Positions 4,428 to 61,159 of a stretch of DNA of 64,000 nt are shown here, piece by piece; the first letter of the stretch is position 1; the number at the start of each line of letters is the position of its first letter. The DNA is from Okamejei kenojei (lineage: Eukaryota), in NCBI GenBank assembly GCA_035221665.1, contig JAVHYY010000112.1, positions 310,001 through 374,000 on the forward strand, read 5' to 3'. The translations under genes and the position numbers were made by a program. The notes below the pieces were generated by a model. It saw nothing but the letters and a program-made list of their open reading frames with translations. It searched no databases and had not been told where the DNA came from.

Positions 4428-5603
4428 ATGGTGATAATAATACTGTTGCTGTTACTGTCGATGCACTGTGAGTATTGCTATCTATATTCCAATAGCGCGC
4501 CTGATAGCTAACATTCCGACTCAGCGACGAAGGAATGGGAATACGTTTCAAAATCGGGATGGCGTGTGGCTTGGAGGGCAACATCCAGCTGGTGGTATTC
4601 GAAAGTATTTTGTTGCCATTGTCCTTTCAGTTCTGACAGGTGGTGGATTTTCAAGATGATGTTTGAGTAGTCAAACAGAATTGCCGGAGATAGACAGCAT
4701 TCCGCCTTTACCAACGCTCTCAGTTGCCATATATTTTAACCTGCCTTCCCACTCAGTTACTGACCTGTCTGTCCTGAGCCTCCTCTACTGTGAGAATGTG
4801 GCCTCAAACTAATTCGAATAGCAGCACCTCCTTTATTCGCTTGGGCAGCTTACCTCCCTGTGGTATGAATATTGATGTATATTATTTCAAGTAACCGTTG
4901 CATTCTCTCTCTTTCCGCCCCTCCCCCATTCTAGTCGTCTTGCTAGCTTCATTATTTGTATCACCTTTATTATGACCTCGACCACAGCTAACAATGGATC
5001 ATTGTGGGCTCTACCATTCGAATGCATCCTTCGGACCATTGAACACTTGTGATTTTTTGTCACGAATTCAGCAATATATATATAGAAATGCAACATTTAC
5101 CCGACTTACAAGAAACACATTCATATATCCGGAGGGAAAATATCGGTGAAGGCATGAAGTAGAATTTTTTCTAATTGTTTCATTAACTTTGCGGTTCTTC
5201 GGGACATGTGTTCTATGACTGCTTGTCGACCGTTGTAGATTAACATTTGTTTTTGTGAACTTAAGTTAATTCGTTAGCTTTCTACCTCTGTTCATAATAC
5301 TGTTTCCTCAGCAGGTGCCCTTGCGGGCGAGGTGCTTCAGTCTCCCGCCTCGCTTACGGTCAATCCAGGAGATGCGGCGCAGTTCAATTGTGTTTTCAAT
5401 GCCTCGGTGGTATCCGCCTTCTACTGGTTTACAGAGAGTCTGGACGGGCGGCTGGAGCACGTCCTGACCATGAAACTCAGCGATAGAAATGTAGTAGGGC
5501 GACACGAGATCATGCTGAGTTCTGCTGAAAATCGAGGCTATTTGGCTCTAAGGAGGACGGAAGTACGGGATACAGCGCTGCACTACTGTGCGATCCAGGT
5601 GTT
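4428..5603 (+). CDS. divergent antigen-receptor V gene segment (leader exon 4428-4467, V exon 5315-5603)
   Basis: Leader MVIIILLLLLSMH ends at a phase-1 GTGAGT donor and joins after ctcagcAG, giving C-ALA-GEVLQSPASLTVNPGDAAQFNC...YWF...DTALHYCAIQV. Both Ig cysteines and the Trp are present, and a consensus RSS follows. Confidence 0.85.
4700..5040 (+). mobile_element. Penelope-like element fragment in the V leader intron
   Basis: Decayed match to the GIY-YIG 3' end at 19040-19217 (gacctgtctgtcctg...cagcacctc...ttcgcttgggcagcttac...ggtatgaatattg). Confidence 0.7.
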
Positions 5604-5642
5604 CACAGTGATGGCAATGAATGGGGTCGCTGTACAAAAACC
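5604..5642 (+). other. 23-bp-spacer recombination signal sequence (perfect consensus)
   Basis: CACAGTG, 23 nt, ACAAAAACC. Confidence 0.97.
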
Positions 5643-6552: not shown

Positions 6553-6658
6553 TCAGCTCGGGTTCTTCTCACTCAGAGAAAATGTTTCCGAGCCAGTGCC
6601 TGTGGCCAGTTGCAAACTGCCGGCAGCGCGTAACATCTGTGCCCCAGTAGCCTGCGGC

Positions 6659-6994
6659 AGTTATTGTACGAGGATTCCGTGCGTTCACGTCCCTGCCAGA
6701 CTCTGCACCGTAATACATCGCCGTTTCAGGCAACAGCTGCGTAATGGTCAATTGATACTCCGTCACCGATTGTTGGAGCACATCAGAAAATCTGCCTTTA
6801 GCGAAATTCGTCGCATATTCAGAGGCGTTACTATTGTATCTCCCCAAATTAAGTTTGGCCCACCCGGCTCTCTACTGGCGATAACAAACTGTATAACATG
6901 GGGAAATTGTGTGTAGGTACAAGATAAGGTGACGTTCTGCCATCCGTCGCTGCGATTGTTTCCCGCTGCATCAAGGTATCGGCAGAGCTCAGAC
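6659..6994 (-). pseudogene. TCR V pseudogene with degenerate 23-RSS
   Basis: Acceptor ctccAG, then GLSSADTLMQ, (frameshift) NVTLSCTY, (frameshift) YRQ*, then FAKGRFSDVL...YQLTITQLLPETAMYYGA with the second Cys changed to Gly. Followed by GGCAGGG, 23 nt, ACAATAACT. Confidence 0.85.
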
Positions 6995-8662: not shown

Positions 8663-11600
8663 TTATTATTTTTTTTGTAAAATATTTTTATTAGAAGTAA
8701 ATACATAATAAGAAGAAATAATATAAAATCAAAAAGAAGAAACATATTATTCGTCACATACATTCTTAATATTTTTAAAGTTTACAGTCATTCTTATTTA
8801 TACTTCTATACTTTTTATTATTTTATAACAGAAAGAAGATGGTAAAGAGAAAAAATAAAAATAAATAAAATAGAAGTAGAAAATCGATAAAATGAGTGGA
8901 GTATTAAGCAGGCTCTTCTTCATTGGAGATATATTCGTGGTCTATTGTATATAATTCTTCATCTATTCCTTCATTCAGGCTTCAGTCAGGCCCTCGAACC
9001 GGACCACCTTGACCCTTTAAGTATTCAATAAATGGAGACCACATTCCTCTGAATTGATCTAGCCTGTCCAAAAGGACAAGTCTTAATCTTTCCAGATGAA
9101 GTGTCTCCAACATTTCTGTAATCCACATTTTGATAGTGGGGGATGTAGGGCCTTTCCAAAATCTTAGTATTAGTTTTTTGCCAATTATTAAACTATAACC
9201 AATAAAAGTTATTTGCTGTGTTGTAAGTAGTTGATCCGTTTCTAATATTCCTAATATGATTAATTTTGAGTCTGGAGTCAAATTTGCATTAACTACATTC
9301 GAGATTATCTTAAAAATTTCTATACAAAAATTAGTAATTTTTGTACATTTTGTGAATGAATGCGTTAAATTAGCTTCTAAATGCTGACATTTATCACATA
9401 TAGCAGAAACATTTGAAAACATTCTGTTTAATTTGGATTTTGAGAAGTGTAATCTATGTAAAACTTTAACTTGTATCAAGGAGTGTCTGGCATTTAATGG
9501 TGTATATGTTGTAAATTTTCATTCCATACTTCTACACTAATGTTTGACCTAATTCATTTTCATATGCTTGCCTATATTTTTCCAGCTTTGGTAAATCATT
9601 TTCCAGTAAAATATTATAAATATATGATATTAGTTTTTCTGTATTCGGATATTTATTTAGGCATTCATGTAAAATTTCTGTCTTTCTATTTCTAAAATCC
9701 CGTGTGTTTGATTTAACATAGTCTCTGATTTGTAAATATCTAAAGTACTCGTTTGAGTGTAATCCGTAATTTTGTTGTAATCCTGAAATGAAAGGAATAA
9801 ACTTTCCCTATAGAGATCACCCATCTTATTTATTCCATAGTTCTTCCATTAAAAAAAAAACTTTATCCATCAATGAAGTTTTAAAAGTAATGTTGTTTAC
9901 AATGGGAAGAGCCAGTGGTATACTTTCTAATGTTAATGTTTTCTTTAATTGTTTGCAAATACGTATGCCACTTTCTATTATTGGATTTCCTCTATACATT
10001 TTCTTATGTATTTTAGTATTTGCAAATAAAATCGAGCTAATTTCGAAAGGTGAACAATCTGCCTTTTCCATTTTTAACCAGTTTGGTTGTTTATCTACTT
10101 CTTCCAACCAAAAATTCATATTTTTAATATTAACTGCCCAGAAATAAAACATAAAATTAGGCAATGCAAAACCTCCATTCATTTTTGATTTACATAGATG
10201 TTTTTATTTATTCTATGGCTCTTATAATCCCAAATAAAATTGGTAACTATCGAGTCCACTTTCTTAAAAACATTTTTAGGAAGGTATATCGGGATCAGTT
10301 GAAACAGGTATAATAATTGCGGAAGAAAAATCATTTTAATCGCATTAATTCTACCTAGCATTGAAATAGGTAATGTTTTCCAATATAGGATATTCTTAAG
10401 TAGTTGATTCAATAGGGGTGGGAAATTAGATTTAAATAAAGAATCATATCTTTTTTGTTACATGAATTCCAAGATATTTGATTTTCTCATTTGCTATCTT
10501 AAAAGGATATCGTTGTAATATATGTGAGTTATTTCCCATTATTGGCATCAGTTCACTTTTAGTCCAATTAATTCTACATCCTAAAACAATCCACATTGAG
10601 TTATTAAATCTAATAAGTTAGGAACACTAATTTCCGGCTTTGTAATATAAAGTAATACATCATCTGCGTATAAAGAGATTTTATTTTCATATTTTTTAGT
10701 TTCATACCCGTATATTTCCGGATGTAATCTCACGCGTTGTGCTAATGGTTCTATTGCAAGTGCAAACAATAGTGGGGATAAAGGACAACCTTGTCTACAG
10801 CCTCGGAATAAATTAAATTTAGTTGTTAACATTTGATTTATTAAAATTCTAGCTGTTGGCTTGGTATATAGTAGCTGAACCCATGTTATAAACTTCTCAC
10901 CCAACTGAAAAGTTTCCATAACCGAAAATAAATAAGACCATTCAATATGATCAAAAGCTTTCTCTGCGTCCAATGAAATAATTGATAAATCCTTGTTAAT
11001 GTTTCTTTTTGAATATATAATATTGAATAATCTTCTCAGGTTGTTTGAGGAGTATCGTTTTGGTATAAATCCTGTTTGATCTGACTGAATTACTTTATTA
11101 ATCACAGCATTTAGTCTTTGTGCTAGTATTTTAGTTAATATTTTTTGATGAGTATTTAAAAGAGCTATAGCTCTCTACGACACTGGATCATCCAGATTTT
11201 TATCTGGTTTAGGTATGAGCGTTATAATAGATTCATTTAATGTTTCTGGTAACTTGTGTTGTGCATAAATGTGTTCATAAAGTGTCTTTAAACGTGGAGC
11301 TATCATATCATAGAATGTTTTATAAAATTCTGATCCAATACCGTCCGGTCCTGGAGTTTTACCATTTTTTAATGACCTAATAGCTTCTTCGATTTCTTTA
11401 GTAGTTATTTCAGCGTTTAATAATTCTCTATTTTCTGAATCCAGTCCTTTTAGATTACAATTTTTTAGGAATGTTTCTACTCCTGTCCGATTTTCTGTCG
11501 GTTTGGCTGAATATAAATTTTTATAATATTGCAAATATCTCTCATTTATATCTTCAGTTTGTACTAGTGATTCTCCTTTGTCTGATTTAATCCAATGGAT

Positions 11601-14600
11601 TAATTTTTCTCCCTCCAATTTTCGTAATTGACGAGCCAATCATTTTTGTGGTTTAACTCCGAATACAAATTGTATTTGTTTAGTATATTGGTATAGTTTT
11701 AAAACTTGGTCTGACTGTATTTTATTTAATTTATATTTCAATGCAAAGATTTTATTATGTTTTATCATGGTTGGGTTAACATCGTTCTCTGTGTCTAATT
11801 GTTTGATCTCCCTTTCCAATGCCTGTTGTTCCCTCCGATCCTCTTTATTATAAAATGCTTGAGAGGATATCATAAATCCACGAACATATACTTTAAAAGA
11901 TCCCCATAATAGAGGCGAAGATATTTCTGGCGTATCATTTATTTCAAAGCAAATCTTGATCTGTTTTGTGATGTATTATTGAGTTATTTTGTCTTTTAAA
12001 ATGTGTGGGTTAAATCTCCATTGTCCCTGATTTTCCGTTTTACCAGTTATTTTCATCATAAAAGTTAAAGGTGCATGATCTGAAATTATAATATTATGAT
12101 ATTTTGAATTATATGTGAGTGGGATAAGTTTTCAATCTACCAAAAAATAATCTATTCTTGAATGTTTTATGCACAGGTGAGTAAAATGAGTATGCTCGTC
12201 CAGCTGGGTTTTGCATTCTCCAAACATCTTGAATATTACTAGTATTTGTATATGCATTTATTAAATCACTGGAATGCGATTTAAGTTTCCGTTGTTTTGA
12301 TGATCTGTCCAAATAAGGATCTAGTGTACAATTTAAATCTCCTCAAATTATTAGGTTGTGTTGTGATAACTCCGGGATAGTATAACTTTTTTTTAACAAA
12401 ACAGCGGGCTGTCAAAATTTGGGCCGTATACATTGACAAAAATCATTTTTTGTGTATAATTCTCCTATTACAATAATATATCTACCATCACTATCAGTTA
12501 TTGTTGAAGTATGTTTAAATGAAGTGCCTTTACGAATTAATATTGCTACACCTCTAGATTTGTGTGTGAAAGAAGAATGATACACTTTGTCAATCCAATT
12601 AGCCTTTAATCTATGTTCTGCCTCTTTTTTTAGATGTGTCTCTTGGATGAATACCACATCTGCTTTAAGTGCTTTTAAATGTGCTAATACTTTACCTCTC
12701 TTAATTGGTTCGTTAATACCTTTAACATTCCAGCTACAAAACGTTATTCCTCCATTCCCCATATTCGTTTGTAAGTCTTGCATCTTTTATCTAAAGGGAT
12801 ATATAATAGGGCGAATGGTTCAGCTCGACATACCCGACTTTACACCCGAACTCCGAATAGATGAATTTCCAGACCCTTGAGTATCTCTCACGTATATATC
12901 TCCTTTGCATTAATTTATAACTCCATTCAAATATAAAATAATAATAACAATAAATAATATTAAAAAGGGATAGATTAAGAGATTAATAGACTTCCGTAGT
13001 CAATGTTACAAACTTATCCATCCCCATGATTCATTAAACTTGTTATTCCATAAAAATATTTAACCGGGAGTATTAAACTCTGATGTGTACAAAATCCATC
13101 AGTCAAGTATATACTAATATCTATACTTAATACTAATTAAAAGCAATAATAATAAGAAAATATAAAAAATAAAGTAATCAGAAAAAATAAGAAAAAGGGA
13201 AGAAAAATATAGAAAAAATAAATAAAAATAAATAAGAAGTACCAGGGGGGATAAATAAAGTCAAAGTTTATATTTTGTGTATTTATATTTACTATTTACT
13301 TAATTCTAAATCGGCAATAATTCATTGTTAATCATTAATTAGTAGTTATTAGTTTTAATTAATAATGATAATACCACAGTATTAATTTTGGTGTGTATTA
13401 GTTATTAATATTAGTAGTGTTACTATTCTAATTATTAGTATCCATAGGAAAGTCTCCAATCCGTATCTCCCCGAATCTCTCATCCGCATCTTTCTCCATC
13501 TTCTTTAGATGAAACAAGTCCATAGTCCATTCCAATCTTGAAAGTACAATTTAATTGTTGGTATAGTTCATCTTTGAAGATTTCATTCAGTCTACCTCTC
13601 GCTCCTTAATCCCTTGGGCAAAGCCCATTGCATCTGCTGGACTTTTGAAATAATGTTCTTCCTGGTTGTAGGTAATTCTCAGGGTGGCTGGGTACGTCAG
13701 ACTGTACTTCATATTCTTCACTTCCCTCAAAATTATTTTGGTCTCCTTGAACGCATTTCGTTTCTTGGAGACCTCTGCTGGATAGTCTCGGTAAATGCTG
13801 ATCGAATCTTCTTCATATGTAAGATTTCTACTTTTTACAATTTTGTTCATCATTTCCTCCAGAACGTGATCATACTGGACTTTTACTATCATTTGTCTTG
13901 GAGGAGCGTCTTGCTTTGTATGTCGCATTACTCTGTGTGCTCGGGCTAATAAAGGCTTTTGTTCTAGAGATAAAACCTTTTTCAATAAGTTTGCAGTAAA
14001 CTCTCGGGTATCTTGATTCTTTTCTCACCCTTCTCGAATACCCACGATCCTTAGGTTCTGTCTTCTCTGGCGTCCTTCCAACTTGGTACACTGATCAGTT
14101 ATTTTGCCCAGTAAGTCAGATAAACGCTGATTTTCTTTGAAGAGTGTTTTCGTAGTCTGAGTACTTGTTCGGCTAGTTCTTCAAGGTTTTTTTATGGCTG
14201 TCGACTGTTCCCTGATTTCTTCCACCACGGGTTCCATTTCTGTTTCCACCTTATTTTCGATTTTTTCATTCATCTCTTCCACTATATTTGCAGATTGATC
14301 CGTCAATATTTCTGCAATTTCCTTTCGCAGCTTGTCAGATAATTCCATGGCCGAGATATTGATTTCAGACTTTAACTCCTTCATCTCCTCCTTGTTTTTT
14401 TTTCTATTTCTTCCTTAAAATTCATTTTTGACAATTCAGTCTTTAATTCCAACTTTATTTGTTTCTTTAACTCTGCCATTTCTTGCACAAAAAAAACTTT
14501 GAGTTCTTCAATTTCCGATTTGTTCTTCGGTTTTTTCGACACATCTTCTAGGGATAGTGACCTACCTGAGGCCCAGGCTTCTGCCGGGCCTTGTTCTTGT

Positions 14601-14815
14601 TCTGCCGTTTTCCTTGTATACCGGAGTTTTGTTTTATTCACAGTTGGACTGCGCTGTGTTGACATTACGAGTCGTGCGCCTGATGACGTCACTCACGGCA
14701 GCCGGTGCAGAAACAGCAGGCAGCAGGTAGGTCTTTTCTCCCAGGTTTTTCCTCGTTTTTTCACGGAGGTGGCTGGCATTGCTTTCTAGTCCTCCATAGC
14801 GTCACCGGAAGTCCC
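8663..14815 (-). mobile_element. full-length decayed L1-clade LINE (ORF1 and ORF2 with EN and RT)
   Basis: ORF1 pieces at 14692-13587 (coiled coil; PRQMIVK...ISIYRDYP...YPATLRI). Endonuclease SWNVKG...IQETHL; RT LDAEKAFD, GCRQGCPLSP, LYADD. The 5' end is GGGACTTCCGG, there is an A-rich tail, and a 16-bp TSD ACATGGTTCCAATTTA sits at 8647-8662 and 14816-14831. Many stops and frameshifts. Confidence 0.96.
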
Positions 14816-21908: not shown

Positions 21909-22817
21909 CTATTTGATCCATTTCCTAAATGTCTTCAAGGAGGATTGAATCGCATTGTTCAACTGCTTTCTAAATTTGGTCTGCGGCCCAGCATAAATAC
22001 ACGAGTTGGTGCAGGAACTGAGAAGGTCCAGCATGTATCCGCTTTCCTGTAGAATAAACCTGGGGTCATTGGAAATGGAGCCGCTGGCATTGTTATTAGT
22101 GGTAAATTGCACAAATAGAAATTGACAAAATACGCCAACCGCAACAGGAGAAAACTGCCCGAGATTGCCATGAATTATATGATGGACTTTCTCCTGCTCC
22201 CCATCTCCGGGTCCCTCTGTTTGGGACCATTGCTCTGGGCCCGGAGCCTCCTACGAACTCCACTGGCTGACATAATGTATCTGACCGTCAGAATATTGAG
22301 CATGAAAATCGAAACGAACGGGAACAAGCGATTTATAATGCGGTCAAACCAGTCAGAAACGCTCCATACAATCGAAGGATAATATATATATATTTAATGG
22401 TGCAGTACCAGGGTACATCATCAAGGATGTAGGCATGCTCGTATACAAAGTAAGTTGGGACGTTTTACAAACAACACAGCACACATATTATACACACAAC
22501 GCTATTCGCGTTTCTTTCACGTCAATAGCTAAGCTTCAGTCTCTGGCAACGAATGGCGATGAAGCGATCGAATGTGAATGCGACCGTCAACCAAACGGGC
22601 GTGTCCTTGGGCGCCAAGCTCAGGACAATAACGAAACTGCAACCCGGAATGATGGAGAGGAAGCTGACAGGAAAATATAACGCTCCAAGTCGGCTTAATA
22701 TCACAGCGTTGACAATGATAAGGAAATCCGCCACTGCCAGGAACACCAGGTAGCGAGTGATGCATTTGGAGAGACCACATACTCCGAGGGACAGGATGAC
22801 TATCGTTACTAAGTTCA
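21909..22817 (-). pseudogene. GPR139-like GPCR pseudogene (exon 2)
   Basis: After cttacAG: NLVTIVILSLGVCGLSKCITRYLVFLAVADFL...VWLTVAFTFDRFIAIRCQRLKLSY*, then AISGSFLLLRLAY and QESGYMLDLLSSCTNSCIYAG. Stops and frameshifts; no exon 1 found. Confidence 0.93.
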
Positions 22818-23089
22818 CTGTAAGAGAGAGATAGTGGATCAGTAGGAATCAGGCTGCCCTCTACCTCATAAGCGTATTGAGGAAAGGGGAACATTTATTT
22901 TCCCAATTAATATTTATGCTATTGGAATCCCGGAATGGATATCAACTTGTGCTTATAGTTGATTATGCCGGCTGAACTCGCGAATGTTAATCAAAGGTCT
23001 TGATTGCCCGCTTCAATGATCCAGACTGGTAAAGGTCCCCTCGAATACCCACCCACGGGGAACATCGTTCTCCCTTTCACTCGAGTTCT

Positions 23090-29616: not shown

Positions 29617-32600
29617 ATGCACGCGCCTGGAAATGGACCTGTCTTCGCTATTTATTATTCTGCCCTTGCTGCTTTCGGCGTTCCAGGTGATGAGTGAAAA
29701 TAGACTAAACGTGGACAATTAACGTGTGACCGTTCGTTGCTGAGTATTTTAATTGTTCGATATATTTCTCATGATTTCTTTTCAGCCAGCTACCGAGTAT
29801 TACGACCACTTTTCAAAAAGGGAGGGAGAGAGAAAACGGGGCATTACAGACCAGTTAGTCTAACATCGGTAGTGGGGAAACTGCTAGAGTCAGTTATTAA
29901 AGATGGGATAGAAGCGCATTTAGAAAGTGGAAGTGAAATTTAGAGTCAGCATGGATTTACGAAAGGTAAACCATGTCTGACGAATCTTATTTAATTTTTT
30001 GAGGATGTAACTAGTAGAGTGGATAAGAGAGAAGCAGCGGATGTGTTAAATCTGGACTTTCAGAAGGCTTTCGACAAAGTCCCAAACAATAGATTAGTAT
30101 ACAAACTTTACATGATATTGGCGGTTCAGTATTGATGTGGATAGAGAACTGGCTGGCAGACAGGAAGCAAAGAGCAGGAGTGAACGGGTCCTTTTCAGGA
30201 TGGCAGGCAGAGACTAGTGGGGTGCCGCAAGGCTCAGTGCTGGGACCCCAGCTATTGACAATATATATTAATGATTTGGACGAGGGAATTAAATGCAACA
30301 TCGCGAAGTTTGCGGATGACACGAAGCTGGGGGGCAGTGTTAGCTGTGAGGAGGATGCTAGGAGGCTGCAAGATGACTGGGATAGACTGGGTGAGTGGGC
30401 AAATGCATGGCAGATGCAGTATAATGTGGATAAATGTGAGGTCATCCTGTTTGGTGGCAAAAACAGGAAAGTAGACTATTATTTGAGTGGTGACCGATTA
30501 GGAAAAGGGGAGATGCAACGAGACCTGGGTGACATGGTACACCAGTCATTGAAAGTAGGCATGCAGGTGCAGCAGGCTGTGAAGAAAGCGAATGGTATGT
30601 TGGCATTCATAGCAAAAGGATTTGAGTACAAGAGCAGAGCGGTTCTACTGCAGTTGTACAGGGTCTTGGTGAGGCCACACCTGAAGTATTGCGTACAGTT
30701 TTGGTCTCCTAATCTGAGGAAAGACATTCTTGCCATAGAGGGAGTACAGAGAAGGTTCACCAGAATGATTCCTGGGATGGCAGGACTTCCATATGAAGAA
30801 AGACTGGATAGACTCGGCTTGTACTCGCTGGAATTTAGCAGATTGAGGGGGGATCTCATAGAGACTTACAAAATTCTTAAGCGGTTGGACAGGCTAGATG
30901 CAGGAAGATTGTTCCCGATGTTGGGGAAGTCCAGGACAAGGGGTCACAGTTTTAGGATAAGGGGGAAGTCTTTTAGGACCGAGATGAGAAAATCGTTTTT
31001 CACACAGAGAGTGGTGAATCTGTGGAATTCTCTGCCACAGAAGGTAGCTGAGGCTAGATCGTTGGCCATATTTAAGAAGGAGTTGGATGTGGCCCTTGTG
31101 GCTGAAGGGATCAGGGGGTATGGAGAGAAGGCAGGTACAGGATACTGAGTTGGATGATCAGCCATGATCATATTGAATGGCGGTGCAGGCTCGAAGGGCC
31201 GAATGGCCTGCTCCTGCACCTAGTTTCTATGTTTCTATGTTTCTAAAGTGTAATCCTTGGATTTTACCATTTTAGGTCACGATGTTAACTTCATTATATA
31301 TTACTTGACCAGTTTCTGAAGGTGGAGCGGCTGATTTGAATATATTCTCTGATGCACACAGAGTTTGGTGCAAGGCAGGCACTTTTAATTCAACGTCTCG
31401 TTACATTCAAATGTTTATACTTAAATTACTTTTATCCTGTATGTTTTCTTTTGAGATACAAGGTGCTGTAAATACTGGAATCTTGCAGCAAAACATAAAG
31501 TGCCGGAGTGATTTAGCTACTCAGCAGCATCTGTGAAGGCAATGAATAGGCGACGTATCGGATCAGGTTCTGAACCCTTGTTCAGGCTTCTGCATCGACC
31601 AAGAGAATGTTTCCACTAAGCTGCCTGGGGTGGCGTTAGGGTTGCGATAAGCAGAACAAGGGCACAGATGACACATGGGTGAGGGATCCACCCGCGACAG
31701 CATGGGGAGCTACGTTCGCCGAATAAGGGACGTTCTGGATAATCTAGAGTGAAATGCCTCGGCGTGGAAGCAGATGCGGCGGTACTCGAGAGCAAGGGAT
31801 AAGAGGAACTTCTATTCTTGCAAGATAGGAGGAAGGTCTGAAGATGGTTCCCGACCCAAAATGTCGCCGATTTCTTCTCCCTTACTCACCAAAGATGCCG
31901 CCTGACCCGCTGTGTTACTCCAGCACTTTTTGTTTTCCAGTGTATTTTCATTATTTTGTACTTTGATTAAAATATGATATATATTACAGATATTGTGACT
32001 CTGTAATCTAAACCATAAATGCGGCATCGAATTTATACATTTTTTAGCCATAGCAGATTGGATTTCTAGTTTGCGAAGCTCTCCGACTTGTTTCTTATCG
32101 CAACTTTTTTTGAATTGTAGTTCTTATTGTAATCAATAAATTATCACCATATGGATATTTTCAGGCGTTTTTATTGTCGCCAGCCCAGTATGTATCTCAT
32201 GCGTAGCGACGTGATTACACGAACTGAACTCTGAAATCGGTGCATTAATGCAGAAAGTCATGATCTTTATTTCGGCCCTGAATGCTTTCCGTATACCAAA
32301 TGGTTTCGTAGTAATGGTATTTTTGTTAACTCGCTTCAGTAACGAGATATTAACCCCCCCCCCCCCCCCCCCCCCGTGAAAACTACCGCTGGCAAAGGAT
32401 GTCGTGTTTATAATTGGGTTGAGAGGCTGCAATTTTCCACTCAAAAACTGTCTGGAATGGTAAAGTATGATAACATAGATCTGTTGTGAACGGGTGGTCG
32501 ATGGTTGACGTAGTTGGTGGGATGAACGGCCACTTTCCACGATGTAGCTCTGATATAAACTGAACGACGTAACATGAGATGGAAAATATCTTGAAACATT

Positions 32601-34093
32601 TGTTAACGTTCATGTTTGCGAAACCTCTTGGGCCACTGCCATGCCCTTCTTCGAAGGAGTCGTTACGATGACGCTTCGGATGGAGCGGACCCTTCGTCCG
32701 TTTCGAAGGATTCGTTACGATGAAGCTCTGTCAGATTTCTCCGTGACCCTCCATGGCTGGTGGTAGTTTTTTTTTTACAATAAAACCATCTATCTTCATT
32801 ATGTGTTTTCATGTAAACTGGTTACATTCCATGGACTGTTTGCTGATGTATTAAATGATCCATTTGTTATGCGATAATGGGTCTCATATCACACGCATGA
32901 AAATAATTAGTTGATTATACGCGCGAAATTGGAATTATTTTTATCGCTTTTGTGTGGAGCTCAAGTCAATGGGCAATTTTAAGGCGGAAGTGGACACATT
33001 CCGGAAGAGTATGTGTGTCAAGGGTTATGAGGAGAAGGCAGGTGAATGAGGTTGAAAAGTAAAGATATATCAGCCACTATTCAATGGTCGAATAGACTGG
33101 ATCTGCCAGCAAAGTTAGAATGCGTTGCATTTTCTAGTGGCGAAGCTAATTATTAATAACCCGGTCTCTCCCTCTGTCCTGCAGCGAATTTCATGACGAT
33201 TGTGATTCTATCCAAAGGAAGATGCGGCCTCTCCAAATGTATCACTCGCTACCTGGTGTCCATGGCGGTGATGGACTTCCTGGTCATCATCACCGCCGTG
33301 ATCTTAAGCCGGCTTCGGGCTATTTATTTCCCGACCACAGTCCTGTCTACCATTCCGACCTGCAAGGTCCTTATTGTCCTGAGCTGGATTTCAAAAGACA
33401 CTTCCGTCTGGTTGACGGTTGCTTTCACCTTCGATCGGTTCGTCGCCATTTGCTGTCAGAAACTGAAACTAATATATTGCACCGAGAAAATCGCGGCGGG
33501 TGTTATTGCAACGGTCTGTGCGTTAGGCTGTTTGAAGAATGTCCCATTTTATTTTATATATGACCCAGTCTATATAATTGATAATGTACCCTGGTTTTGC
33601 ACCATAAAAGATTCGTACTATTCTTCAATTGCATGGATAGTGTATGATTGTCTACACCGCGTCTTGAACCCATGCCTCCCGTTCCTACTAATTCTGTTGC
33701 TCAATGCTCTCACGGTCAGACATATTCTAGCTGTCAGTGCAGCCCGCAAGAGGCTCCGGGCCCAGACCAAAGATGGGAAAACAGAGTGACCCGGAAATGG
33801 AGAGTCGGCGGAAGTCTATCATTTTACTCATGGCGATCTCGGGCAGTTTTTTGCTGTTGCGATTGACATATGTCGCAAACTTTCTCTTTGTACAAATTAC
33901 AAGCAGCGGTTATGCAACCCGTTCCAATTCCAATGACCCCAAGTTTATTCTCCAAGAAAGTGGATACATGCTGGAGATACTCAGTTCTTGCACCAACTCG
34001 TGTATTTATGGGGGGACACAGACTAAATTTAGAGAGCAGTTGCAGGAAGTGGTTAAGTATCCTTTCTATCTAATTCGTAAGCGGTTAAAATAG
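29617..34093 (+). pseudogene. GPR139-like GPCR with a single 1-bp frameshift (exon 1 29617-29686, exon 2 33185-34093)
   Basis: Exon 1 MHAPGNGPVFAIYYSALAAFGVP ends at a GT donor. Exon 2 reads ANFMTIVILSKGRCGLSKC...FTFDRFVAICC...AQTKDG, then one extra base near 33778-33781, then KQSDPEMESRRKS...NSCIY...RLK*. Confidence 0.9.
29800..31245 (+). mobile_element. 5'-truncated CR1 LINE (RT) in the GPCR intron
   Basis: YRPVSLTS, GVPQGSVLGP, KFADDTKL and a (TTTCTATG)n tail. Confidence 0.95.
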
Positions 34094-45155: not shown

Positions 45156-47375
45156 TTACTTGATTTTGTTAATCAGCTTGAAGGGGTATGTGACCGCATT
45201 TTTCAACTGCTCCCTGAATTTGGTCTGCGTCCCCGCGTAAATACACGAGTTGGTGCAGGAACTGAGAAGCTCCAGCATATATCCGCTTTCTTGTAGAATA
45301 AACCTCGGGTCAGTGGAATTGGAACTGTTGGCATAGTTATTGCTTGAAAACTGCACAAACAGAAAGTTAACAACAAACGTCAGGCGCAGCAACATGAAAC
45401 TACCCGAGATGGCGAAGAGTAAAATGATGGACTTCTTTCTGCTCTCCATCTCTGGGTCCCTCTGATTGTCTCCATTGCTCTGGGCCCGGAGCCTCTTGCG
45501 GGCTCCACTGGCCGCCAGGATATGTCTGACTGTCAGCGCGTTTAGTAGCAAAATCAGAAGTAAAGGGAGACATGGGTTTAATATACGATGCAGCCAGTCA
45601 TAAACTCGCCAGGAAGTTGAAGTGTAATATATTTCTTTAATGCTGCAATACCAGGGAACCTTATCGATAACATACACGGGCTCATAAACAAAGTAAAGCG
45701 GTATGTTTTTGAAGCAGACAAGCGCGCAGACTACTCCAATAACTGCAGCCGCCGTTTTCTCCGTACAATAACCGTGTTTCAGTCGCTGGCAGCAAATGAC
45801 GATGAACCGATCGAAGGTGAACGCGACAGTTAACCAGACGGACGTGTCTTTGCAAGCCCAGCTGACTGCAATGACGACACTGCAGGCCGGATTTGTCGCC
45901 AATAAACTAAGCGGGAAATAAATAGGCCGGAGCCGGCTCAATATTACGGCTACGACAATGACCAGGAGATCCCACAGCGCCATGAACACCAGGTAGCGTG
46001 TGATGCATTTGGAAAGGCCGCATCTTCCCTGGGAGAGAATCACGATCGTCACCATATTGGCTGTGAAACAAACAGAAATACGATGGAGTTATTCATCATT
46101 ATTCCGGCCGCGTCGCCAGTTTATAGGAACGTAGAAACGAAATTCAGTCCTGGTGGAAGTCATTATGGTTGAAAATATTACTCGCGAGGCTTTTTGATCC
46201 CCCCATCTCTTTTTCAGCTTACTCTTCCCCTACAATCGGATGAAATAAGAGTCCTGACACGAAACTTTCGCCTTTCCACATATTTCAGAGTCGTTGCCTG
46301 ACCCGTTTATCAGTTAAAATGAGCACACCGAATGGAAACGTTGCCACATAGCTTATCTTAGTATTCTTTGGTTTTAAATGTTTATGGTTTAGAACGGAAG
46401 AAATGCAAAAAAAAAAACATGTAATTAATATTAAATTGGGAACATGCACACATTCGAAAGCAAACAGTGGAACCTGACCAATGACACACATGAATGAAAT
46501 TATCTGCTGATAATAGACCTGCCTAATCGTTGCCTAAATTCGCTATGACCTTTCGAGGCACAATATAAAAACGTAGGCAAACTTCATTCATACAATGTCT
46601 ACTCCGATAGTAAAACAGGGTTCTGGTACAAAATTGAACCAGGCCGAGGAGAGTGGAGGTGGCATTCCGGCGCGTTCACCAAGATCTCGCAAACAGTACC
46701 GAACATTGAAGCGTTCTCCATTGCCATCCTGACACCTTTCTCTTTGCACTTTCTCTGCTTTCAACTGATTATTTTAAAAATGTGAAGAAGGTCCTCGACC
46801 GGAAACGTCACATATTCCGTTTCTCCAGAGATGTTGGCTGACCGGCTTACTTACTCCAGCATTTTGTGCCAATCTTTGGTTTCAACCAGCATCTGCAGTT
46901 CCTCCCCACAGACATTCCGAAGTCTGATGCAGAAAATTTGGTAAAGCACGAAGACTGCATACGATTCCATTCAAATCAGTGCATTTTGCAATGCCTGCCT
47001 TTGTTACCAACAGAACAAATCGAACGAATGTTAATCTGAAAACTGAATTGTATAATTGATTGCCTTCTCCGTATTGAGTTACTAGATTCTACCAAATAAA
47101 ATGTCAAAGCGAGCAAATATTGGGGAATCTATGCGTTTATTACAAAGTAAGGCAGGTGAAAGGAAAATTAACTTCCAAATTAACAAAGCGTTTCGCTGTA
47201 CGTGACAATAAATAAACTGATCTAACCGATCTAACGAGGGACCTGTAACTAGACGTAACACGGTTTAACTTAGGTTTCCGCCATTCGTTTACTGGGAAGA
47301 TTTACCTGGCAAGCCAAACGCCGCAAGAGTACTGTAATAAACGGCAAAGACTGGTCCATTTCCAGGCGCGTGCAT
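45156..47375 (-). CDS. intact two-exon GPR139/GPR142-like class A GPCR, 324 aa (exon 1 47375-47306, exon 2 46060-45156)
   Basis: Exon 1 MHAPGNGPVFAVYYSTLAAFGLP ends at GTAAAT; after cacAG comes ANMVTIVILSQGRCGLSKC. Seven hydrophobic segments, with ALWD (TM2), FTFDRF (TM3) and SSCTNSCIY (TM7). Confidence 0.95.
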
Positions 47376-49209: not shown

Positions 49210-49713
49210 ATGACTGTTTACTTACATAATCGTGCCATTATGTGTGAACACCGCCTCCCGATCTTCGTTATCATGTCACTTCTCAGTAAGGATTCTCACC
49301 CAGTAAAAATCCTTTCTTCTCACGAATGTTGTCACTTGATTTCTGCCGATAAAGACAATGCTGATGCCGCTTCAATCATATGATTCTGACAATTGCTATT
49401 TTCTCTTAGACTGGAGCCATCAATATACGGTGGAACAGGCCGAAGCAGAAACCACATTTGCGGAGGGAAAATATGTAACACTCAAGTGCCTATTGAAAAC
49501 CAGCGATACACTCCCATATGTTTACTGGTACAAACAGCGACTTGAACATTCTCCGCAGTACCTGATTCAGGTTATAGGAAATAACGTAAACAGGGCGAAA
49601 GGCATCACAGATCGATACTCTGCTACATTCAATAAAACGGCAACGATGGGCGAGTTCGTGATACGTGGCGGCGTGTTCTCCGACTCCGCCCTGTACATCT
49701 GTGCCATGCTATA
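49210..49713 (+). CDS. TCR alpha/delta-type V gene segment (leader 49210-49285, V exon 49410-49713)
   Basis: Leader MTVYLHNRAIMCEHRLPIFVIMSLL ends at GTAAGG; after cttAG comes NWSHQYTVEQAEAETTFAEGKYVTLKC...VYWYKQ...DSALYICAML. Confidence 0.93.
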
Positions 49714-49752
49714 CACACTGGTGCAAAAGTGCAGCGGGTTCGAACAAAAATA
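49714..49752 (+). other. 23-RSS
   Basis: CACACTG, 23 nt, ACAAAAATA. Confidence 0.9.
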
Positions 49753-51249: not shown

Positions 51250-54200
51250 ACATAGACACATAGAAATTAGGTGCAGGATTACGCCGTTCGGCCTTTCGAG
51301 CCTGCACCGCCATTCAATATAATCATGGCTGATCATCCAACTCAGTATCCCGTACCTGCTTTCTCTCCATACCCCCTGATCCCCTTAACCACCAGGGCCA
51401 CATCTAACTCCCTCTCAAATATAGCCAATGAACTGGCCTCAACTACCCTATGTGCCAGAGAGTTCCAGAGACTCACCACTCTCTGGGTGAAAAAAGTATT
51501 TCTCATCTCGGTCTTAAAGGATTTCCCCCTGATCCTTAGACTGTGACTGGTCCTGGACTTCCCCAACATCGGGAACGATCTTCCTGCATCTAGCCTGTCC
51601 AACCCCTTAAGAATTTTGTAAGTTTCTATAAGATCCCCTTTGAATCTCCTATATTCTAGAGAGTATAAACCGAGTCTATCCAGTCTTTCTTCATAAGTCA
51701 GCCCTGACATCCCAGGAATCAGGCTGGTGAACCTTCTCTGCACTCCTTCTATGGCAATAATGACCTTCCTCAGATTTGGAGACCAGATCTGTGCACAATA
51801 CTCCAGGTGTGGTCTCACCACGGCCCTATACTACTGAAGTGAAACCTCCCTGCTCCTATACTCAAATCCTTTTGCTATGAAAGCTAATATTCGCTTTCTT
51901 CACTGCCTGCTGCACCTGCATGCTTACTTTCAATGACTGGTGTACCATGACACCCAGGTCTCGCTTCATCTCCCCTTTTCCTAATCGGCCACCATTTAGA
52001 TAATAGTCTGCTTTCCTGTTTTTGCCACCAAAGTGGCTAACCTCACATTTATCCACATTATACTGCATCTGCCAAACATTTGCCCAGCCTATCCAAGTCA
52101 CCTTGCAGTCTCCTAGCATCCTCCTCACAGCTAAAACTGCCCCCAGCTTAGTTTCATCCGCAAACCTGGAGATATTGCCTTCAATTCCCTCATCCGGATC
52201 ATTAATTTATATTGTAAATAGCTGGGGTCCCGCACTGAGCCTTGCGGTACCCCACTAGTCACTACCTGGCATTGTGAAAAGGACCGTTTACTCCTACTCT
52301 TTGCATCCTGTTTGCAACCAGTTCTCTATCCACATCAATGCTGAACCCCCAATGCCGTATGCTTTAAGATTGTATACTAATATCTTATGTGGGACCTTGT
52401 CGAAAGCCTTCTGGAAATCCAGATAAACCACATCCATTGGTTCTCCCCTATCCACGCTGCTCGTTACATCCTGGAAAAATTCCACAAAATTTGTCAGACA
52501 TGATTTACCTTTCGTAAATCCATGTTGACTTTGTCCAATGATTTCACCACTTTCCAAATGTGCTGCTATCCCATCTTTAATAACTGACTCTAGCAGTTTC
52601 CCCACTACCGATGTAAGACTAACTGGTCTGTAATTCCCAGTTTTCTCTCTCCCTCCCTTCTTAAAAGAGTGGTTACGTTTGCTACCCGCCAATCCTCAGG
52701 AACTACTCCAGAATCTAAAGAGTTTTGAAAGATTATCACTAATGCATCCACTATTTCAGGAGCTACTTCCTAAAGTACTCTGGGATGCAGCCTATCTGGC
52801 ACTGGGGATTTATCGGCCATTAATCCATTCAATTTACCCAGCACCACTTCCGGACTAACCTGGATTTCACTCAATTCCTCCTTTGATCCGCGGTCCCCTG
52901 CTATTTCCGGCAGATTATTTATGTCTTCCTGAGTGAAGACGGAACCAAAGTAGTTATTCAATTGGTCCGCCATGTCCTTGTTCCCCATGATCAACTCACT
53001 TGTTTCTGACTGCAAGGGACACTACATTTGTTTAACTAATCTCTTTCTCTACACATATCTACAAAAACCCTTTCAGTCAGTTTTTATGTTCCCTGCCAGT
53101 TTTTTTTTCACAATCTATTTTTCCTTTCCTAATTAAGCCCTTTGTCCTCCTCTGCTGGTCTCTGAATTTCTCCCAGTCCACTGGTATGCTGCTTTTTCTG
53201 GCTACTTTGTACGCATCATCCTTTTCTTTGATAGTATCCCTGATTTCCCTTGTTATCCACGGATGTACTACCTTCCCTGATTTATTATTTTGCCAAACTG
53301 GGATGAACAATTCTTGTAGTTCATCCATGCAGTCTTTAAATGTCTTCCATTGCATATCCACAGTCAACCCTTTTAGAATTAATTGCCAGTCAATCTTGGC
53401 CAATTCACCTCTCATACCCTCAAAGTTACCTTTCATTAAGTTCAGAACCATTGTTTCTGAATTAACAAAGTCATTCTGCATCCTAATGAAGAATTGGACC
53501 ATATTATGGTCACTCTTGCCCAGGGAGCACGTACAACAAGGCTGCTAACTAGCCCTTCCTCATTACTCAATACCCAGTCTAAAATAGCCTGCTCTCTCGT
53601 TGGTTCCTCTACATGTTGATTTAGATAACTATCCCGCATATATTCCAAACACTCCTCTTCCTCAGCACCCCTGTCAATTTGATTCACCCAATCTATATAT
53701 AGATTGAAGTCACCCATTATAACTGTTTTGCCTTTGTCGCACGAATTTCTAATTTCCTGTTTGATACCATCCCCAACTTCACTACTACCGTTAGGTGGCC
53801 TGTACACAGCACCCACCAGAGTTTTCTGCCCCTTAGTGTTTCCCAGCTCTACCCATACCGATTCCACATCCTCCAAGCTAATGTTCACCATTCCATTGCG
53901 TTAATCTCCTCTCTAACCAGCAACGCTACCCCACCTCCCTTTCCTTTCTCTCTATCCCTCCTGAATATTGAATATCCTTTGATGTTCAGCTCGCAGCCTT
54001 GGTCACCCTGGAGCCATGTCTCCGTGATCCCAACTCTATCATAATCATTAATAGCTATATGCACGTTCAACTCATCCACCTTATTACGAATACTCCTTGC
54101 ATTGAGACACAAAGCCATCAGGCTGGTTTTACAACGCTCTTACCCCTTGCACAATTATGTTGAAAAGTGGCGCCTTTTTGATATTTGCCCTGGTTTTGTC

Positions 54201-55640
54201 TGCCTGCCACTTTTGCTTTTCACCTTGCTCCTTATTGCTTCTACCCTCATTTTACACCCACCTGCCTCTCTGCTCTTGTACCCATACCCCTGCCACATTA
54301 GTTTAGATCCTCCCCGACAGCACTAGCAAACAATCCCCCAAGGACATTGGTTCCATTCCAGCCCAGGTGCAGACTGTCCTGTTTGTCCAGGTCCCACCTG
54401 CCCCAGGACTGGTTCCAGTGCCCTAAAAATTTGAATCCCCCCCTTGCACCATATTTCATGCCACGTATTCGTCCGCAATATCCTCCTATTTCTACTCTGA
54501 CTGGCCCGTGGTGCTGTTAGTTATGCAGAGATTATTACCTTTATGGTCCTACTTTTAATTTTATCTCCTAGCTCCCTAAATTCACCTTGTTGGACCTCAT
54601 CCCTTTTTTTTACCTATATCGTTGGTGCTAATATGCACCACTACAACTGGCTGTACACCCTCGCCCTCCAGAATGTCCTGCAGCCGCTCAGTAACATCCC
54701 TGACCCTTGCACCAGGGAGGCAACATACCATCCTGGAGTCTCGTTTGCGGCCGCAGAAACGATTATCTATTCTCCCGACAATTAAATCCCCTATTACAAT
54801 TGCCCTTCCCCCTTTTTTCCCGCCTCATGTGCTGCAGAGCCACCCATGCCGGGTTGCAGATCAGACTGCAACCCGGCATGGAGCCATGAACTTGGCTGCT
54901 GTTGCATTCCCCTGTTGCCATCTCCCTCAACATTATCCAAAATGGTATACCTGTTTAGGAGGGAGATGACCGCAGGGGACCCCTGCACTACCTGCCTACT
55001 GCTTTGCTGGCTATTGGCCACCCGATCCCTTTCTGTCCTCTTAGCTTTCACCGGTGGTGTGACCAACTCATTGTACGTGCTATCCGCGACATTCTCCGCA
55101 TTGTGAATGGTCCAGTATGAATCGAGCCGCAGTTCCAATCGTTCAATGCGGTCTGCAAGGAGCTGCAGCTGGACACACTTCCTGCAAATATAGTCACCAG
55201 GGACACCGACCATATCCCCGATCTCCCACATGTTACAGGCTGAACAAACCACGGGGCCAATCTCCACTGACATATCTTACTCCCGGATTACTCTGTATTA
55301 AATATATTTTTTAAAACACACAAAACTTTATCCTTAAACTTAACTAATAAATACTGAATCCTTAATTCCCAGAATCCTTAACTCCCAGAATCCTTAAACC
55401 TGAAGGCAGAAATGTAAAAATGTAAACCCCGGGTTGCACCCATTCAGCTGCTTCCTCTGGTCCTCTTCAACCAATCAGAGGCTTCCACCAGATTCTTGCA
55501 GATTTCTGTCTCACAGCGAAAAGCAAGCCCCGCGCTAGATTTATACTCACAGCGCAGGTAACTCCACCCTCTCGCACCGACGGCTCCCCGGGCCTCTGTG
55601 AAAAGCAAGCCCCGCGCTAGATAGATACTCACAGCGCAGG
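51250..55640 (-). mobile_element. near full-length decayed CR1 LINE
   Basis: ORF1 zinc finger CSAC...CRKC (55273-54794); endonuclease LNARSIRNK...GITETWL, VYRPP and MGDFN; RT YRPVSLTS and YLDFQKAFDKV; 3' UTR. A roughly 40-bp direct repeat lies in the 5' UTR (55519 and 55601). Confidence 0.95.
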
Positions 55641-56051: not shown

Positions 56052-56565
56052 ATGATGAACAGTTACAGATTTGTATCTATTATTGTCGGACACTTCCTTC
56101 CGCTGTTCATTATCTTGACACTTCTCAGTAAGATATTTCTTGCACGTAAAAAATCTATCTTCCAATGAATGTTGTAACCCAATTGTTGATAGTGGAAGGT
56201 TAATGCCTATGCTGCTTCACGCAATGATATTAATTGGGCCATGTTCAATATTTTCTCTTAGATTCGAGCCATCAAAATACAGTGGAACAATCCGAAGCAG
56301 AAATTACGATTGAAGAGGGAAAGAATGTCACACTAACCTGTACTCTGAAAACCAGTGATACAACGCCGTATGTTTTCTGGTATAATCAGCGGCCAGCTCA
56401 CTCTCCACAGTACCTGCTTCAGGTTCTGGGAAATAAGATATTCAGGAACACGGACGTGACCGATCGCTTCTCTGCTAACTTTTATAAAACTGCGAAGATG
56501 ACTGAGTTCATAATACGCGACACCGTGATGTCTGATTCCGCCAAGTACATCTGCGCCATGAGTCG
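56052..56565 (+). CDS. TCR alpha/delta-type V gene segment, paralog of 49210 (leader 56052-56127, V exon 56262-56565)
   Basis: Leader MMNSYRFVSIIVGHFLPLFIILTLL ends at GTAAGA; V reads NSSHQNTVEQSEAEITIEEGKNVTLTC...VFWYNQ...DRFSA...DSAKYICAMS. Confidence 0.94.
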
Positions 56566-56604
56566 CACACTGTTGCAGAAATGCAGCAGGCTCGAACAAA
56601 AACC
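56566..56604 (+). other. 23-RSS
   Basis: CACACTG, 23 nt, ACAAAAACC. Confidence 0.94.
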
Positions 56605-58846: not shown

Positions 58847-60636
58847 TTATTTGAACCGTTGTCTAATTATGTTGAAAGGGTATTGAATAGTTGTCTTCAG
58901 CTGCTGTCTGAATTTAGTCTGAGTCCCCGCATAGATAAATGTGTTGGTGCAGGAACTGAGAAATTGCAACATATATCCGCCTTCTTGAAAGATGAACTTC
59001 GGGTCATTGGAATTAGAGGCGCTGACATAGGTATTCACTGTGATTTGCACAAATAGAAAATTTGCAACGTCCGTCGCCCAGAGCAGAATAAAACAGCCCG
59101 AGATGGCGAAGAGCAAAATTATGGACTTTCTCCTGCTCTGCATCTCTGGGTCACTCTGTTTCTCTCCGTTGTTCTTGACCCGAAGTCTACCACGGGCTCT
59201 GCTGGCAGCCAGGATGTATCTGACCGTCAGAACATTGAGTATCAAAATCAGGAGAAAAGGAACGCATGGGTTTAACATCCGGTGCGACCATTCATACACT
59301 CTCCAAGCGACGGAAGTATAAAATATGTCTTTTATGCTGCAGAACCAGGGCACTGTGTCGATAATGTACATCGGTTCAAATTCAAAATAAAACGGGACGT
59401 TTCTCAAACAGGCGAGGAAGCACACGGTTCCTATAACAACGGCCGCAGTTTTCTCGGTGCAATACCTCAGTTTCAGTTGTTGGCAGCAAATCGCTACAAA
59501 CCGATCGAAGGTGAAAGCGACCGTTAACCATACCGAAGCATCTTTAGAAGCGGAGCTGAGCGCAATGATCAGACTGCAACCCGGCGTGGTGGACAAGATA
59601 CTAACTGGGAAATAAATCGCCCGAAGACGGCTGAAAATCACAGCAGTGATGATGACCAGGAAATCCGTCACCGCCATGAATACCAGGTACCGAGTGATGC
59701 ATTTCGAGAGGCCACATTTTCCCTGGGACAGAATCGCAATCGTCAGGACGTTAGCTGAAAGGAAAAGAGTGGGATTATGTAAATAATATTTATCGGTGCC
59801 CGCTCCATAACTGTTTTTTGGGAGCTGACGTGCACTCCCATATTGTTGCTACGAATACAGAGCGTGAAGCGGTTATTGATTTGCTGGTTATCTGTTTCTG
59901 ATATCAAATGGCCACGCGAAACCGAGCTCTACGGTCGATCGCGTGCACTACGATGGACATGTTTTTCTAATTGTGTTTTGGACTGCATGGTTTTCCGCAG
60001 TCTTTTGCATTTCACTGCCTGGTATAATTTACGTGTTATGTATATTTGTGCGTTCTGCCTGTTATGCGGTGGCAAGCATGATTTTAATTATTCTACCAAT
60101 CTCGTCACACTTATGCAAACAGCGAACAAATTGACTTGACTTGTTTATCTTCATACACGACAAGGTTAATTTATAAGTGCATTTACTTACAAATTAACAT
60201 TGACAGGACAATTTTAAGCAAGGCAGTTAAGACATATTGGAACAGGAATGTGCAGTTTCATGAAATAAAGTTAAATCGACAATAAATTATATTTGCAACA
60301 AAACTAAGACATAAGGGTGTCTTCGAAACAACTGTGAAAAGAGGTTATGCCATAAAACAAATTATTGTAATAAACTAAAGACTAGATTTCATAAGTAACA
60401 TCCGTACAAAAGCTGCCTCATGTAAAATTCGCAGTTTTAAGAGCAACGATAAGGAACAAATTATGGAAAATTGTGGTGCAGAACCGAAGGCTAAGGCGGC
60501 CATAGCGTCACATATCAGATCATCATGGACACGGTTACGTATTTATCACCTCTTGTCAAGCTTTACCTGGCACACCGAAAACTGCAAGGATTGTATAATA
60601 AGTGGCGATGATTGGTCCGTTTCCAGGCGCGTGCAT
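58847..60636 (-). CDS. intact two-exon GPR139/GPR142-like class A GPCR, 325 aa (exon 1 60636-60567, exon 2 59754-58847)
   Basis: Exon 1 MHAPGNGPIIATYYTILAVFGVP ends at GTAAAG; after tttcAG comes ANVLTIAILSQGKCGLSKCITRYLVFMAVTD...FTFDRF...FILLWAT...SSCTNTFIY. Confidence 0.95.
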
Positions 60637-61159
60637 GTTCCTTGATTTCGATTGCGGAGCTGCATCAGCTAAATTAAACACGGGCACACGGATATTTATA
60701 TCTCATATCATCCTCTGTGGAGCAATTAGATTGCATCATCGTCAAACCTTCTTTTGTTATTCCGTTTGAAGACCAAACAATCAGTTTTACGAAGTTCTTC
60801 TTAGCGAGTCCACATCACAAGATTAGAAATGGTACAGCCAGGGCTGAACACACTTCTCGGCATCTGTATACTATGGCGTCTGTCTTGCGCTTCTTGTGCT
60901 TCTTGTGCGTGGTGGTGGACAGATTGGTGGAAACAGGGGCGCGACGTGAACGCCCTTTCCTTGACTCCATTTTTACGATTAATTAATGCAATTGTATACA
61001 CCTAATTCTACGAGCATTCTAGTCCCAGGTTGAATGGACGTCGCTGCTTAGATGCAATGTTAATAAAATGTAAGGTATATAAGGTATAAATAGTCATAAA
61101 GGCGAACAACGCGTAAACGGGGCCGTCGACCCAACGCGTCAATTCCGATCAAGTCACAG

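Follow-up and report, generated by a model that had tools for sequence, protein, structure and literature searches.

What kind of V gene combines strongly altered framework motifs with a complete leader, intact splice sites and a faultless RSS? The question is raised by a gene in a window of 64,000 nucleotides from Okamejei kenojei (the whole stretch of DNA analysed, C176:310001-374000), on a contig of which 724 of 726 kb were surveyed. A first-pass annotation had described the gene as intact, with leader, splice sites and reading frame preserved across an 847-bp intron and followed by a consensus 23-RSS, and as carrying WFTE, RHE and HYC motifs and a Trp-to-Cys distance of 54 residues; all of these features were found as described (Table 1). 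Here we argue that it is probably a conventional TRAV/TRDV gene of an old, fast-changing, short-domain family, intact and single-copy, that would be joined by RAG to J-alpha or D-delta.

Anatomy and locus of the V gene

The spliced frame is open over 109 codons, and its clean splice and frame rule out an assembly or frame artefact as the source of the gene. A second AG at 5310-5311, 3 nt upstream and likewise in frame, forms a tandem acceptor. The RSS has no mismatch to the heptamer-23-nonamer consensus and is the sole mismatch-free one of five RSS-like hits in the window; across the alpha/delta contigs, a mismatch-free 23-spacer RSS accompanies 3 of 97 RSS-bearing V hits, this gene among them, with some genes counted twice in that total owing to overlapping loci. 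The V exon passes the Pfam V-set model narrowly (28.3 bits, cut-off 26). The dissimilarity earlier noticed between this gene and the five other V segments of the window also holds, with 20-26% identity to the four intact ones, the fifth being a frameshifted remnant.

Table 1. The V gene and other elements of the window (window positions)
Feature	Position	Strand	Description
Leader exon	4428..4467	+	40 nt, ATG at 4428, hydrophobic signal peptide, phase-1 split
Intron	4468..5314	+	847 bp, GT donor at 4468, AG end, common-repeat fragments inside
V exon	5315..5603	+	Cys-Trp-Cys core and Arg/Asp salt-bridge pair retained
RSS heptamer	5604..5610	+	consensus; offset 18 (nucleotides counted from the Cys codon)
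RSS spacer	5611..5633	+	23 nt
RSS nonamer	5634..5642	+	consensus
V remnant	about 6570-6950	-	frameshifted, second Cys absent; on C988 too, also broken
V genes ending YIC	49340-49752, 56234-56604	+	two related intact genes with CACACTG heptamers; a subfamily on a long branch within the main CACACTG group
Rhodopsin-family GPCR exon copies	21909-22894, 33150-34093, 45156-46088, 58847-59848		among the V genes, some broken; Pfam 7tm_1 in three tested; family abundant around C15 V genes too
LINE/CR1-type retroelement fragments	8982-14789, 30011-31219, 51271-55276, 61100-62916		Pfam RVT_1 in two tested

The surrounding contig is a mixed-orientation TRAV/TRDV array, in which pseudogenes are common among the neighbouring V genes and which contains cassettes of NAR V, D, J and supporting V near 507-510 kb and 663-676 kb. 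Such an organisation has been described for elasmobranch TCR alpha/delta loci in the sections available of two reports (PMC12227049, PMC6795676), and the cassettes thus mark C176 as belonging to this locus. Candidate joining partners lie on C241, a separate and, like C176, unplaced contig of the assembly, where a survey of 200 of 526 kb identified 60 J-alpha and 3 J-delta segments, D segments, a C-delta-like exon and two IgH-like V genes, with 12-RSS partners. Three read runs of the same species, probably DNA, covered only the intron repeats of the V gene and also missed a C-delta control exon, and are uninformative.

Two further arrangements were observed on C241. At C241:297100-305900 (+ strand), an IgH-like V precedes a separate J and then a second C-delta-like exon, a unit that faces away from the main D-J-C-delta region and may represent a small second delta-type cassette. 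Between the two IgH-like V genes, at C241:288700-289250, lies a short-type V remnant split by a repeat insertion; this truncated remnant (C241:288.7 kb) was considered as a paralog of the V gene and rejected, as it was not among the top tblastn hits.

Under the 12/23 rule, RAG would cut the 23-RSS of the V gene and join it to a J-alpha or D-delta segment through that segment's 12-RSS, either by deletion or by inversion, given the mixed orientations of the array and the separate contig that carries D, J and C. The leader would be spliced on and then cleaved, and the domain would fold as a V-alpha-like sandwich and pair with V-beta (or V-gamma), the joined product being predicted to be an ordinary two-domain chain.

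Unusual residues, copy number and a probable ortholog

Position 102 (IMGT numbering), the site of the tyrosine-corner Tyr, is His in this gene; of 87 distinct V sequences of the locus 85 have Tyr, as do 43 of 44 references, and the other locus sequence without it is apparently the NARTCR V at C176:663 kb. In FR2, WFTE replaces Gln with Glu, and WY.Q occurs in 75 of 82 locus V sequences. The Trp-Cys span had been characterised as longer than in NAR-type domains, which stands (47 in one NARTCR V of the same genome), but 54 is short for the locus, where 86 of 89 measured V entries span 57-61 residues (five more entries lack a measurable Trp and hence a span). Only this gene and one V on contig C15 (53, counted twice) fall between 47 and 57-61. 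Amniote TRAV references have a Trp-Cys span of 54-55 and the same Cys-Trp spacing (11-12) as the V gene.

The position of the heptamer is similarly distinctive. An offset of 18 from the Cys codon is found in this gene alone among the 97 alpha/delta hits, 76 of which have an offset of 15, and it recurs in two of the four TRG V genes of the same genome. The T8G9 microhomology, a TG motif characteristic of V-alpha ends in fish and present in 61 of the 76 position-15 genes, is absent here. Position 15 with the TG motif is regarded as the primordial V-alpha pattern in the portion available of PMC10322711, which gives figures of 86.8% and 2% of expressed shark V-alpha for an RSS at 15 and at 18, respectively. 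Since 18 is in phase with 15, the offset is compatible with direct V-J joining and would contribute one extra germline codon to CDR3, and joints made without the TG microhomology are expected to be less stereotyped.

Protein and DNA searches found the V gene to be single-copy genome-wide, with the next matches 31-36% identical and the nearest of the 87 distinct V sequences on the alpha/delta contigs at 36%. Nurse-shark V families have been defined at 75% amino-acid identity, as given in the accessible part of PMC5931798. The gene lies below this threshold against every V sampled (best 36%), and by that rule of sequence identity it forms a separate family within this genome. Another lone short V was observed on chromosome-scale contig C15 (C15:57461900-57462260, L126), with a Trp-Cys span of 53, an EGRF motif like that of mammalian TRAV, an RSS with an imperfect nonamer and a nearest neighbour at 36%; it adjoins one other V, and no J was found in the 200 kb around it. 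Kinship of L126 with the V gene was rejected as an established fact, the two being 27% identical and not sisters in free trees, with an AU test that does not reject the grouping.

A colinear second version of the array is present on contig C988 (C988:270001-360000 versus C176:270000-400000), about 90% identical; the 20,628 columns compared contain 9.9% mismatches and 0.7% frameshifting indels. It either arose by segmental duplication or is a haplotype that has diverged strongly, and in the second case the V gene would be a presence/absence polymorphism. Different V genes are broken in each version, amounting to reciprocal gene losses. On C988 the leader of the V gene is retained (91% identical) and the V exon and RSS are lost. 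In a simulation of neutral drift since the split of the two arrays, which presumes that the ancestral RSS was perfect and that the two copies drifted equally, the reading frame and splice sites survive in 14% of cases, falling to 10% when core residues are added and to about 4% with a perfect RSS as well; these odds are suggestive of selection on the V gene.

A search of 1.84 billion representatives returned 137 hits, among which one protein of 144 aa, P0013, stands out (42% identity, E 1.5e-13) and is the only one to exceed 40% over the full domain. It is encoded on a 1265-bp contig as a read-through of a V exon and has the Trp-to-F-strand length of the V gene. Its tail aligns with the translated RSS of the V gene, from which we infer that it carries the same RSS at an identical offset; two metagenome scans did not recover the underlying DNA. 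Compared with the V genes in the DNA surveyed, P0013 scores 82 bits to the V gene and 41 to the next V, and 39 identical columns, including many odd residues common to both, link the pair. These similarities make P0013 a probable ortholog. P0013 retains Tyr102, but its second Cys is replaced by Tyr, a loss by which P0013 may itself be broken. The identity of the pair is 40%, as against 57% and 62% in two further pairs, also probable orthologs, that involve shark records. Word-indexed protein searches over 67-2000 aa yielded no further ortholog and no named protein above background.

Placement among V domains and competing explanations

Phylogenies were built from 47 V rows of this genome, drawn from its alpha/delta, beta, gamma, IgH and IgL loci, together with the query pair and 44 outside rows; the outside references were all drawn from hits to the query and are biased to look-alikes. 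From this genome, the references included TCR beta V genes on C35, C576 and C67 and the TCR gamma locus at C4:80.58-80.66 Mb, which has four intact V genes, one broken one and a C exon. Elsewhere in the genome, at C8:21.7-23.1 Mb (L092-L094, L120, L125), we observed a cluster of paired non-rearranging single-exon VJ genes, to which the shark records P0016 and P0076 are related. Six long or non-rearranging rows were removed for an 85-row tree (LG+G4) and 45 of 91 for a 46-row tree, bootstraps being not fully settled in either, and a mixture-model tree was run in a quick version.

The V gene and P0013 group together at 97-100 support in all three trees, on a long branch for the V gene (0.6-0.8). 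The pair is sister to three squamate TRAV-type rows in the 85-row tree (96/89) and in the quick mixture-model tree (84), and is unplaced in the 46-row tree. None of nine alternative groupings was rejected by AU tests (p-AU 0.12-0.53), so that of the phylogeny that the first-pass annotation had proposed, the distinct pair emerges clearly but the deep placement does not. The log-likelihood relative to the free tree is best for squamate short TRAV (+1.6), followed by the C15 short V (-2.1), NARTCR V (-3.5), two shark TRAV groups (-4.4 and -14.1), supporting V-delta (-4.9), IgH-like V (-6.6), TRG (-8.2) and TRB (-19.5). Mean pairwise scores of the V gene and of P0013 are likewise both highest to amniote short TRAV, the best single-domain PDB sequence matches of the V gene are TCR alpha chains, and TRAV clusters appear among its Atlas features at 0.93-0.94, and at 0.96 for P0013. 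A fold model built from a nine-row alignment rich in TRAV reached a pLDDT of 95.8 and is matched best by TCR V domains, at Z 15.0 and rmsd 1.1-1.2 across 91-92 residues, with a VNAR at Z 12.3 and rmsd 1.5 over 84 residues; a model based on a TRAV-rich alignment makes this match partly circular. The single-sequence model (pLDDT 56) was too poor for a fold search. Taken on sequence, the V gene is a lineage of its own, and its kinship with short amniote TRAV groups is weakly supported. The earlier proposal of a new V lineage is therefore upheld insofar as the gene nests in no sampled family of this genome (87 sequences) and has a probable ortholog, but not in its implied affinity with unconventional V types.

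That affinity would make the gene a member of an unconventional V class that derives from IgH, NAR, TCR-gamma or TCR-beta and sits within the alpha/delta array, which we judge to be very unlikely. AU tests fail to reject grouping it with TAILV-like genes (0.33), NARTCR V (0.43), TRG (0.36) or TRB (0.12), and its RSS offset, unique among the alpha/delta hits, is matched in half of the TRG V genes. Table S1 of PMC12227049 lists, by label and without sequence, a great white shark 'TCRbV' gene that lies among V genes of TCR alpha/delta and, like the V gene, stands head-to-head with a minus-strand V. Against this class, the corresponding groupings lie about 5 to 21 log units below that with short TRAV, and mean pairwise scores peak at amniote short TRAV. 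Length and anatomy also set the gene apart from those of the NARTCR and TAILV-like types. Unlike the NARTCR cassettes, it carries a leader and an RSS of its own and lacks a D-J partner, and its length, best database hits and predicted fold are those of an ordinary TCR-alpha V.

A conventional gene could still be failing. Relaxed constraint or early decay, with a domain that folds or pairs poorly and is rarely or never used, would account for a His at the tyrosine corner, seen in only 2 of 87 locus V sequences, as well as for the lost FR2 Gln, the long branch, the missing second Cys of P0013, the deletion of the exon from the C988 array and the many neighbouring pseudogenes. The perfect RSS, intact splice sites and core, with a neutral survival of about 4%, argue in the opposite direction, as do the columns identical in P0013; the odd residues common to the two indicate that most of the divergence would be an old character of the family and not recent decay. 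We consider decay unlikely overall: from its sequence the gene is likely still usable, and possibly decaying at the change of Tyr102 to His. Somewhat less doubtful, and compatible with a conventional short-domain TRAV/TRDV gene, is the possibility that its ortholog has already been catalogued as a V family in another shark, either a nurse-shark alpha family or a single-member bamboo-shark TRAV, which would remove only the word 'undescribed'. In three functional C. punctatum TRAV genes the exon is short: coordinate arithmetic on the entries of supplementary file 15 of PMC10322711 gives 272 nt up to the Cys, compared with 275 nt in the V gene and 293-296 nt in typical C. punctatum TRAV; several single-member C. 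punctatum ORF genes in that source have an RSS at 18 with an exon length that is not derivable, and its 2% of expressed shark V-alpha with this offset also fits. Opposed to this, no sized C. punctatum entry in the available part of PMC10322711 joins a short exon with an RSS at 18, no named protein of 67-2000 aa rises above background, and P0013 is the sole full-domain match above 40% among the 137 hits. The offset of 18 was itself rejected as a mark of orthology in the bamboo shark, most offset-18 genes there having long exons in the same source. No published description of the family was found in the literature searched; it is distinct from the families sampled in this genome and at most a candidate undescribed family, the shark V tables consulted listing genes without sequences.

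Implications and relation to known V types

Most of what is known about TCR alpha/delta V repertoires in elasmobranchs comes from cDNA of one or two sharks, and a V as divergent as this one would escape surveys based on primers or similarity. Were it expressed, the gene would extend the oldest TCR repertoire by a distinct family and offer a handle on the age of the mammalian short V-alpha design; if decaying, it would be an instance of routine birth-and-death evolution. A more speculative reading, which we regard as improbable, is that it is a cartilaginous-fish member of the short TRAV lineage, kept single-copy, that could mark a dedicated and possibly semi-invariant T-cell subset. The short TRAV lineage, dominant in amniote alpha repertoires, would then be older than the split between sharks and bony fish. 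Invariant T-cell receptors in mammals are found at single-copy V genes, and the gene's own CDR3 geometry, with an RSS at 18 and no TG microhomology, forms part of the dedicated-subset reading; the 40% identity to its sole probable ortholog argues against strong conservation.

Among known V types, the supporting V of a TCR-delta cassette lacks its own leader and lies downstream of NAR V-D-J, and the V gene was rejected as such a supporting V-delta on the grounds of its own leader exon and an identity of 27%. NARTCR V genes occupy the same array and are also shortened, but they bear the NAR-type deletion of the C'/C'' region, to which the 47-aa span measured in this genome corresponds, and lie in a V-D-J-supporting V cassette (PMC12227049, PMC6795676); the present gene, with 54 aa, no adjoining D, J or supporting V and 27% identity, was rejected as one of them. 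TAILV and IgH-like V genes, which lie near C-delta in the alpha/delta region, resemble it in carrying a leader and an RSS of their own. The two on C241, labelled TAILV from position and tree, have a span of 57 aa and group with IgM/IgW V (95-98 bootstrap), but are 29-31% identical to the V gene and do not group with it in three free trees. With the elasmobranch TRAV/TRDV genes of the array it has in common the locus, the split leader, the 23-RSS and the Cys23-Trp41-Cys104 core, and differs in an identity of at most 36%, a Trp-Cys span 3-7 residues shorter and its single-copy state. Short amniote TRAV genes (human TRAV12/21/24/27-type; squamate P0009, P0073 and P0093) have the same spacing, split leader and 23-RSS, and their Trp-Cys span of 54-55, which reflects a short CDR2/C'' region, matches that of the V gene, a length that may by itself converge; the identity is 24-32%, and the V gene differs from them in its His102 and in the absence of the FR2 Gln.
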